Below the pieces are notes generated by a model. That model was given only the letters and a program-made list of their open reading frames with translations, did no database searches and was not told the origin of the DNA. A DNA stretch of 1,005 bases, from NCBI RefSeq assembly GCF_003334335.1, contig NZ_QOWQ01000131.1. One strand, 5' to 3'. A program made the translations under genes and the position numbers. This DNA is from Escherichia coli (GTDB lineage Bacteria; Pseudomonadota; Gammaproteobacteria; Enterobacterales; Enterobacteriaceae). Each line of letters starts with the position of its first letter. The stretch's first letter is position 1. Below, one piece after another: positions 1 through 1,005 of the stretch.

Positions 1-1005
1 GGATACGTCGCTTTTGCCCCCGTGATATCTGTCAGCGTCAGCGTATCTGCTGTAAAGCCATCATTTGTCCACATCACAAGGTCAAACGCCGTCTGCTCTG
101 TACCATCAATCACCGGAACGACTCTTTCGCTGTTATTTCCCGCAAAGCGGAAAACAACCGTATGCCAGTTATGGTCAAACGCACCAAATGTACCCAGTTG
201 TGCATTCGACGTGCCCTTGTGGTGCATAAGATTCAGATTTGATGCATCCGTCTGAAGGAAGAATGATGCCAGCATACTGTTTGCTGCCGCGCCTGACGCC
301 CACTGCGACACCGGCCAGTAGAGACCAAAGACAAACTGTCCGTTCACCAGTTCGCTTCCATCCGGAATTTTGAACCGTACGGCAATTTCACCCCCCTTGC
401 TGAGAAGATTTTTTGCCTCCTCCACTGCAACAGTACGGAACATTTTCCAGGACGTCAGTTTACCGGGCTGTTTTTCCAGTCGCAGCGCTTTCCGTCCACC
501 GTCATCAGTCACAGTGCCTTTGCCACCGGCAGCCCCCCACTGCTGCTCTGTCCATACACCATTTCCACTGTTCGCATCATATTCAGCCACCGTCCTGGTA
601 CTGCTCACGGCCTCATCATGACCAGTACCAGCAACACCGCCATCCTGCGGTTTCTCAACACCCGGTACCCCCGGACTGACATCATCACCGGGAGTTGTAC
701 CACCCGACTGCGGTGCGCTCTGCCCGGTAAGGAACGATAATGTCCGCCCGGCGTACTGCAAAACGGCACCTGCCAGGCGGTCTGAAACAAGGCCTCTTCG
801 CGCCCATGAACTGAAGTGCGTTTTACGATCGGCTGACGTCCAGTTACTGGCAGTGCGTGACGCAGCGCCATAGTATCCCGCCGGGATAATGTCCGGATCT
901 TCTGACGGCTCGTTTGTCGGCACATTCACACCATGCTCATCCGTCATCAACGGCACAAAGTGAATATTCTGCGCAGCTTTGCCTTTATACCCACCGTAAA
1001 CCGCC
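1..1005 (-). CDS. Internal fragment of a large protein, partial at both ends; putative extracellular receptor- or carbohydrate-binding protein (phage tail fibre-like or adhesin-like) with a C-terminal LamG/ConA-like lectin-fold domain. Function is putative.
   Basis: Minus-strand frame with codons at plus 1004->3 is stop-free for 334 codons: I checked every plus-strand triplet starting at a multiple of 3 and found no TTA, CTA or TCA. Every other frame is broken by stops. Translation N->C begins AVYGGYKGKAAQNIHFVPLMTDEHGVNVPTNEPSEDPDIIPAGYYGAASRTASNWTSADRKTHFSSWARRGLVSDRLAGAVLQYAGRTLSFLTGQSAPQSGGTTPGDDVSPGVPGVEKPQDGGVAGTGHDEAVSSTR... and ends ...GAFDHNWHTVVFRFAGNNSERVVPVIDGTEQTAFDLVMWTNDGFTADTLTLTDITGAKATY. 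Composition (Gly/Thr/Ala/Ser/Val-rich, 9 Trp, 0 Cys) is protein-like. Confidence refers to this being real coding sequence; the functional label is much weaker (about 0.3-0.4). Confidence 0.9.
3..590 (-). other. Predicted LamG / concanavalin-A-like lectin (jellyroll) domain; C-terminal part of the fragment, continuing beyond the plus-strand 5' edge of the window
   Basis: Motif pattern recognised by eye, in N->C order: GEIAVRFKIPDGSELVNGQFVFGLYWP (beta-strand region with conserved aromatic), then a Gly-rich loop, then FDHNWHTVVFRFAGNNSERVVPVIDG (plus 102..179). The W-H-hydrophobic run followed about 12 residues later by hydrophobic-x-(D/N)-G is the characteristic core of LamG-like jellyroll domains (Pfam Laminin_G_3-type pattern). 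No profile search was run. Confidence 0.5.
597..731 (-). other. Low-complexity Gly/Pro/Thr/Asp-rich interdomain linker (protein level)
   Basis: Translation LTGQSAPQSGGTTPGDDVSPGVPGVEKPQDGGVAGTGHDEAVSST has no hydrophobic core residues and is rich in G, P, T, S, D, typical of a flexible hinge. On the plus strand this appears as a C-rich antisense stretch. Confidence 0.5.
732..1004 (-). other. N-terminal segment of the fragment; unassigned fold, probably the C-terminal end of an upstream domain
   Basis: Translation AVYGGYKGKAAQNIHFVPLMTDEHGVNVPTNEPSEDPDIIPAGYYGAASRTASNWTSADRKTHFSSWARRGLVSDRLAGAVLQYAGRTLSF has mixed composition and looks globular. I recognise no motif in it. Confidence 0.3.

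Follow-up and report, generated by a model that had tools for sequence, protein, structure and literature searches.

A nanS-p-type reading frame fills the window

The DNA analysed here, referred to as the window, is a stretch of 1,005 nucleotides from Escherichia coli (contig NZ_QOWQ01000131.1 of assembly GCF_003334335.1). Jointly with the rest of the explanation developed below, we consider it very probable that the window encodes residues 311-644 of a 662-residue NanS-p (a sialate O-acetylesterase of prophages) and that the gene belongs to the late region of an E. coli lambdoid prophage. Only one of the six reading frames is open: minus-strand frame 2, with 334 of 334 codons free of stops (window 3-1004), the remaining five frames having 6-21 stops each. 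The open reading frame (ORF) runs off both ends, and a first-pass annotation made from the letters of the window was right to call it a single intragenic kilobase. A 1,989-nt coding sequence (CDS) of the E. coli NCTC9112 chromosome (NZ_LR134079.1) contains the window at 100% identity; its 662-residue product, WP_126502619.1, is named "SASA family carbohydrate esterase". The isolated Escherichia phage PhiR5_1, which the GenBank record describes as a complete genome with E. coli C as host, matches the window at 100% identity as well; the same gene is thus carried by an infectious phage. A literature search on the PhiR5/PhiR12 phages found nothing relevant.

The features of the gene and protein are as follows (positions are those of the window; residues are those of the 662-residue protein):

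3-1004, minus strand: internal part of nanS-p, codons 311-644 of 662; the ORF runs off both window ends.
Outside the window, minus strand: DUF1737, residues 3-50 (Pfam).
Residues 74-394, minus strand: SGNH/SASA esterase (PDB 3PT5, E. coli NanS/YjhS, E 1.6e-114; Pfam SASA, residues 81-276).
753-1004, minus strand: C-terminal quarter of the esterase (SGNH type II/SASA), residues 311-394, from the 3PT5 alignment.
816-827, minus strand: SGNH block IV, R370-K-T-H373, aligned to "RSSH" of NanS.
594-752, minus strand: linker of 53 residues rich in Gly, Pro, Ser and Thr, residues 395-447, free of PDB or Pfam domain matches.
690-698, minus strand: motif T413-T414-P415, candidate counterpart of the "SSP" motifs of phi24B gp84.
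3-593, minus strand: window part of the jelly-roll domain at the C-terminus, residues 448-656 (PDB 6YP6, "NanS-p", E 3.8e-48; Pfam DUF6645).
78-404, minus strand: DUF6645 core (PF20350), residues 511-619 (Pfam E 4.8e-33 with the window protein and 1.6e-32 with the full protein).
54-335, minus strand: four aromatic residues, F534 (333-335), Y539 (318-320), F559 (258-260) and F627 (54-56), placed by global alignment to the 645-residue 933W/phi24B-type protein.

We assign the gene as a nanS-p allele because of this build of DUF1737, SGNH/SASA esterase, linker and 6YP6-like jelly-roll, which is the NanS-p architecture of Shiga toxin (Stx) phages and other lambdoid phages (PMC10462455, PMC8065619). 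All three domains (N-terminal DUF1737, central SASA/SGNH esterase and the extra C-terminal domain) are present in the protein, with residues 311-644 alone falling inside the window; both the build and its occurrence in non-Stx prophages have been described (PMC10462455). The earlier reading of a linker followed by a distal domain agrees with the Gly/Pro-rich linker and the jelly-roll that follows it. That reading was silent on the last quarter of the esterase domain, with its catalytic His373. Among the PHROGs families, phrog_143 matches the protein over its full length with function unknown; none of the PHROGs matches carries a tail annotation, phrog_143 and the 8 others all being listed as "unknown function".

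Several other candidates in the window were set aside. Short ORFs elsewhere (106 residues at 605-925, minus strand; 88 residues at 413-679, plus strand) were put down to the long ORF, on which purifying selection acts. The only Rfam match in the window, UPD-PK2, with 20.5 bits (E 0.57), fell short of its gathering score of 32 and was rejected as a chance, sub-threshold match. In some genomes (H6) the product name "DUF6645 domain-containing protein" raised the suspicion of a truncated gene; it is the same intact 662-residue ORF, differently named.

A NanS-type esterase

In the alignment to chromosomal NanS, Ser87 (outside the window) matches Ser19, in the motif GQSN, and His373, whose codon is at window 816-818, matches His301 (position 312 of the aligned 3PT5 chain). 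In NanS, catalysis relies on Ser19 and His301 and involves no catalytic Asp (PMC9063846); the esterase of this allele has the corresponding Ser87/His373 dyad. The published variants of block IV are RSSH, RASH and RPTH (PMC10462455); the RKTH of this allele is a further variant that keeps the catalytic His. Chromosomal NanS (YjhS) is homologous across the full esterase domain at ~60% identity, with the GQSN Ser and the block IV His common to both, whereas its solved chain (PDB 3PT5) has neither the DUF1737 nor the linker and lectin domain of NanS-p. NanS is a member of the nan sialic-acid regulon and not a prophage gene.

The prophage, its integration sites and the slot of nanS-p

In NCTC9112, nanS-p lies inside a lambdoid prophage of 49.5 kb at tRNA-Ser/yccA. 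The prophage ends are a 60-bp exact direct repeat (NZ_LR134079.1 positions 3332953 and 3382458), which is the 3' 60 nt of the tRNA-Ser beside hyaA; the second copy lies between the integrase (3381297-3382316) and yccA. Outside are core genes, the hya/app operons on one side and yccA-tusE-rlmI on the other. Reading inwards from the integrase, the order is exonuclease, dicB, immunity/replication genes, RusA, a DNA methyltransferase, tRNAs Ile-Arg-Arg, a TerB-family gene, DUF3927 and nanS-p; then DUF1378, DUF826, holin, lysozyme, Rz and lambda-type terminase, portal, D and E head genes; and finally the tail genes, again of lambda type, up to J and a tail fibre. Strain DETEC-S792 carries the same allele (99.8% over the window, with an identical DUF1737) in a different prophage, beside ompW/yciE/trpA. 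The allele therefore occupies at least two integration sites, at tRNA-Ser/yccA and on the ompW-yciE-trpA side.

The first-pass annotation had suspected an accessory, prophage or mobile-element context, while noting correctly that the window itself offers no integrase, tRNA or repeat: our scans of the window found no integrase, no tRNA and no direct, inverted or tandem repeats. The suspicion is borne out by the integrase, the 60-bp attachment repeat at tRNA-Ser, the core genes outside, the match in PhiR5_1, the presence of the allele in 36 of 5,426 complete E. coli genomes and its two or more sites. Of the flank checks proposed at that time, the search for an integrase and a tRNA succeeded with both in NCTC9112, and none of the observations named at that time as contradicting a prophage context was made. 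The search for a shift in G+C was uninformative (CDS 54.7%, prophage 52-53%, core flanks 51-54%).

The rationale given for that context, that such proteins are over-represented in prophage tail modules, did not hold for this gene. We opened the contexts of 7 E. coli prophages (from the 36 carriers and from genomes with distant alleles), of the phages PhiR5_1 and PhiR12_1 and of one Stx2a phage. In all 10, nanS-p is part of the late regulatory/lysis region, with the Q antiterminator/tRNAs on one side and the holin on the other, and the tail genes follow ~12 kb downstream, after the lysis and head modules. The general order of the slot is Q, tRNA Ile/Arg, variable cargo (stx in Stx phages), nanS-p, DUF1378, DUF826, holin, lysozyme, Rz and terminase. 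In the Stx2a phage, stx2AB is just upstream of nanS-p, in the cargo slot occupied by the TerB-family gene and DUF3927 in NCTC9112. The placing of nanS-p downstream of Q (and of stx, where present) and upstream of holin S has been described (PMC10462455).

The C-terminal domain is lectin-like

The C-terminal domain is homologous to the jelly-roll domain of vb_24B_21 of phage phi24B (PDB 6YP6). Outside the family, its closest structural neighbours are the sialic-acid-binding lectin domains of sialidases; Foldseek agreed on the first two matches of the structural comparison. The likeness to the lectin domain of the Vibrio cholerae sialidase (PDB 2W68, 1W0O), which we take to be CBM40, is at the level of the fold, with a sequence identity of just 11%; the binding of sialic acid by the NanS-p domain is putative. 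The description of the distal domain as LamG-like is correct at the level of the fold, in that LamG domains share the concanavalin A-like lectin/glucanase beta-sandwich superfold. It fails at the level of the family: no LamG structure was among the top 60 structural neighbours, and a Pfam scan at E <= 10 returned DUF6645 alone for the region.

The aromatic residues F534, Y539, F559 and F627 are the counterparts of Y510, Y515, Y540 and F611 of vb_24B_21, the proposed sugar-binding residues (PMC10462455). An aromatic residue is thus kept at 4 of 4 positions, with two changes from Tyr to Phe. The ligand may differ because of these two changes at the putative site and the 46.5% identity of the domain as a whole.

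Relatives of the DUF6645 family are few, with just 29 at E <= 1e-3 among 1.84 billion cluster representatives. The C-terminal domain is a shufflable module. DUF6645 jelly-rolls occur in other builds, namely DUF1737 plus lectin without the esterase (P0006) and two DUF1737-like repeats plus lectin (P0013). Several DUF6645 proteins (among P0006, P0013, P0007, P0020, P0024 and P0012) also bear an extra C-terminal domain of ~90 residues with the motif DDVSSxVYFP...GKTW.

Linker, selection and mosaicism

The linker is the most G+C-rich part of the gene (61.6%) and the fastest evolving. Its identity is 21% to the 933W type and 49% to PhiR12_1, with indels, and its ratio of non-synonymous to synonymous substitution rates (dN/dS) is 0.42; the linker is under relaxed constraint and prone to indels. 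Strain 2018-166 has a 3-codon deletion (window 681-689, residues 416-418, GDD) and four substitutions in the linker, with a C-terminal domain that is 100% identical. The linker tolerates changes of length. The TTP motif at residues 413-415 is kept in all six close alleles (L001-L005, L010) despite the surrounding indels. A second TTP follows DUF1737 at residues 54-56, outside the window (L001:19231-19239), such that motifs of the form [ST][ST]P stand at analogous positions in both linkers, TTP/TTP in this allele and SSP/SSP in the 933W/phi24B type. These motifs may correspond to the sites at which phi24B gp84 is proposed to be processed, for which the evidence is weak, or may be chance occurrences in linkers rich in Ser, Thr and Pro.

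Comparison over the window with PhiR12_1 gives a dN/dS of 0.24, and that with the 933W-type allele 0.135; the esterase domain gives 0.125-0.143 and the C-terminal domain 0.14. Both folded domains are under purifying selection. Between NCTC9112 (L001:19072-19230) and PhiR12_1 (L010:3072-3230) the DUF1737 part has zero substitutions, whilst the rest of the gene is diverged (esterase synonymous divergence, dS, 0.44; second linker at the 49% identity given above), which implies recombination breakpoints inside the gene. The gene is a domain-wise mosaic.

Distribution and relation to Stx-phage NanS-p

All 36 carrier genomes have the allele on the chromosome, and distant DNA relatives are present in ~1,600 of the 5,426 genomes. 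Amongst phages, homologues were found in 351 records, mostly Stx-converting, at 52-61% overall identity. Among the phages, this C-terminal variant is confined to PhiR5_1 and the PhiR12 series, six records in total and each of them stx-negative. The homologous C-terminal domains of 336 other phage records have <=46% identity, and the variant is absent from the Stx-phage records searched. By the 80% grouping of PMC10462455, the domain forms a C-terminal group without a representative among the Stx phages of the collection.

Compared domain by domain with the NanS-p of Stx phages (933W L0105/z1466; phi24B vb_24B_21, the same protein as gp84), identity is 64% for DUF1737, 70% for the esterase, 21% for the linker and 46.5% for the C-terminal domain. 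The protein is 17 residues longer than the 645-residue 933W/phi24B type, mainly in the linker, and differs in its RKTH block IV. Its carriers are stx-negative lambdoid phages with siphovirus, lambda-like tails, whereas phi24B and 933W are podoviruses. This is a rare, uncharacterised allele of a well-described family and not a new kind of system. The family, the three-domain build, the place beside stx and the occurrence in non-Stx prophages are already published, and the exact sequence is in RefSeq and GenBank. The record is corrected in two respects, in that the gene does not encode a tail protein and the domain is not LamG. The lambdoid phages with the rare lectin variant, PhiR5_1 and the PhiR12 series, form plaques and lack stx, and would be safe and tractable systems for two questions about NanS-p, its display on lambda-type heads and the glycans bound by its variable lectin domains.

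Proposed function and alternatives

The function that we favour follows that of characterised alleles. With esterase domains 70% identical to theirs, this allele would be transcribed with the late operon, under Q antitermination, upon prophage induction; nanS-p has been reported to be among the most strongly induced late genes (PMC8065619), and quantitative PCR on its induction has been published (PMC10462455). Since no signal peptide is evident by eye at the N-terminus, the protein would probably leave the cell at lysis. Outside, the esterase may remove the 9-O-acetyl group from 5-N-acetyl-9-O-acetylneuraminic acid (Neu5,9Ac2), both as free sialic acid and on mucin O-glycans, as suggested by the NanS-p alleles of EDL933 and O104:H4, which show esterase activity on Neu5,9Ac2, sustain growth and remove acetyl groups from mucin glycans (PMC8065619). 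For this allele, hydrolysis of the 9-O-acetyl group of Neu5,9Ac2 is predicted from the same 70% identity of the esterase domain. The deacetylated sialic acid could then be used by sialidases and the Nan pathway, and populations of lysogens would thereby grow better in mucus. The tethered lectin domain would putatively concentrate the enzyme on sialoglycans, a role that fits its sialic-acid-binding structural neighbours, the four aromatic residues kept and its character as a shufflable module. Possibly DUF1737 also docks the protein on the capsid, as in phi24B gp84.

Several points weigh against this explanation. The activity, expression and localisation of this allele are read from its relatives only, and no NCBIfam model matches the protein. 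The C-terminal domain shares just 46.5% identity with the domain that was crystallised and has Phe in place of Tyr at two of the four putative binding positions, and carbohydrate binding by the C-terminal domain is a proposal, for phi24B as for every allele (PMC8065619). The step of capsid docking is modelled on a T=9 podovirus, whereas the DUF1737 of this allele travels with two siphovirus-type head modules: either DUF1737 recognises a generic feature of the HK97 fold, or capsid docking does not apply here.

The alternative that survives best, although we regard it as tentative, is that the protein is chiefly a component of the virion, with DUF1737 hexamers on capsid hexons displaying the esterase and lectin domains and the linkers being cleaved later. 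The displayed domains would bind or modify glycans of mucus or of the cell surface to the benefit of the phage and not of the lysogen. Its starting point is a preprint combining cryo-electron microscopy and proteomics of phi24B, in which gp84 is a capsid decoration protein, a hexamer of DUF1737 occupies the hexon at the centre of every T=9 facet, storage leads to loss of the C-terminal domain by cleavage, and the SSP motifs of the two linkers are put forward as sites of processing (bioRxiv 10.64898/2026.04.10.717836). The allele studied here has its DUF1737 at residues 3-50, 64% identical to the phi24B/933W type and with a Tyr (Y41) in the equivalent anchoring loop; each linker has an [ST][ST]P motif, placed like the proposed SSP sites; the lectin module is also found fused straight to DUF1737 without the esterase (P0006); and the gene is among the late genes. 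Yet an identical DUF1737 accompanies both a lambda E/D-type head with a major capsid protein (MCP) of 342 residues and a head with an MCP of 645 residues, the two MCPs having no detectable similarity to one another (BLASTP E 0.34). Neither of the linked heads is of the T=9 phi24B type, as judged from MCPs that were compared with each other and not with the phi24B MCP, and a decoration protein, D, is already part of the lambda-type head. Moreover, the preprint is not yet peer reviewed, and the particles that it describes are those of phi24B.

A bolder version, which we think unlikely, would make DUF1737-esterase-lectin a portable capsid-display cassette for differing HK97-fold capsids (lambda-type T=7, the 645-residue-MCP type and T=9 phi24B), acting as a device for adherence to mucus. 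The rare C-terminal variant would retarget it to a different glycan, and domain-wise recombination would swap anchor, enzyme and lectin. If true, such a cassette would give temperate coliphages enzymatic adherence to mucus.

Less probable still is that the true substrate is a bacterial surface polysaccharide (O-acetylated lipopolysaccharide O-antigen or capsule), whose deacetylation would aid access to the receptor or escape from debris, with the action on mucin incidental. Phages are known to carry SGNH esterases that act on surface glycans. Of the folded parts, the C-terminal domain varies most (46.5% identity, compared with 70% in the esterase), as expected of a specificity module, and a review of Stx phages left such a substrate as a possibility (PMC8065619). 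However, the esterase has ~60% identity to chromosomal NanS, which is dedicated to Neu5,9Ac2, the NanS-p alleles characterised so far have Neu5,9Ac2 and mucin as substrates (PMC8065619), sialic acid is bound by the domains closest in structure to the lectin domain, and the gene is outside the tail/adsorption module.

Finally, a tail-fibre, tailspike or baseplate protein with the distal LamG-like domain as its receptor-binding head is highly improbable given the Q/tRNAs-to-holin position 12 kb upstream of the tail genes in every context, an N-terminus that is DUF1737 and not a tail-fibre anchor, the lack of any tail Pfam domain in the protein, the prophage's own J, tail fibre and assembly genes, and the location of the phi24B protein on the capsid and not the tail (bioRxiv 10.64898/2026.04.10.717836).

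Neighbouring genes and further observations

The prophages that carry the allele differ in their structural modules. Two head modules are linked to it, with the MCPs compared above encoded at L001:31168-32196 and L009:2628-4565. The tail-fibre end holds cargo of virulence type: DETEC-S792 (L009:23377-29530) has a YadA-like adhesin and a 1,335-residue S6-family (SPATE-type) peptidase; NCTC9112 has a YadA-like protein at this end (L007:12420-13877).

The cargo between the tRNAs and nanS-p varies as well. It comprises the TerB-family gene and DUF3927 at L001:17987-18579, a small protein annotated as "TolA" at L003:5118-5546, the anti-adapter IraM at L012:3515-3850 and stx2AB at L006:3274-4514. 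The many DNA matches of 27% coverage and 69% identity (e.g. H84) were expected to be chromosomal nanS; the one that we opened was a 617-residue prophage nanS-p allele in the same Q-to-holin slot. In this allele (L012:4111-5964) the holin follows directly, without the DUF1378 and DUF826 genes.

At the NCTC9112 locus, a 490-nt gap upstream of nanS-p and outside the window holds a full-length match to the small RNA (sRNA) STnc100 (Rfam RF02076, 143 bits, E 1.6e-32) at L001:18645-18850 on the plus strand, ~220 nt before nanS-p begins. According to a 2026 preprint, STnc100 is an sRNA of prophages that is related to PasD and has a link to esterase genes. The 3' end of STnc100 agrees with the position of a terminator-like hairpin, L001:18820-18839.

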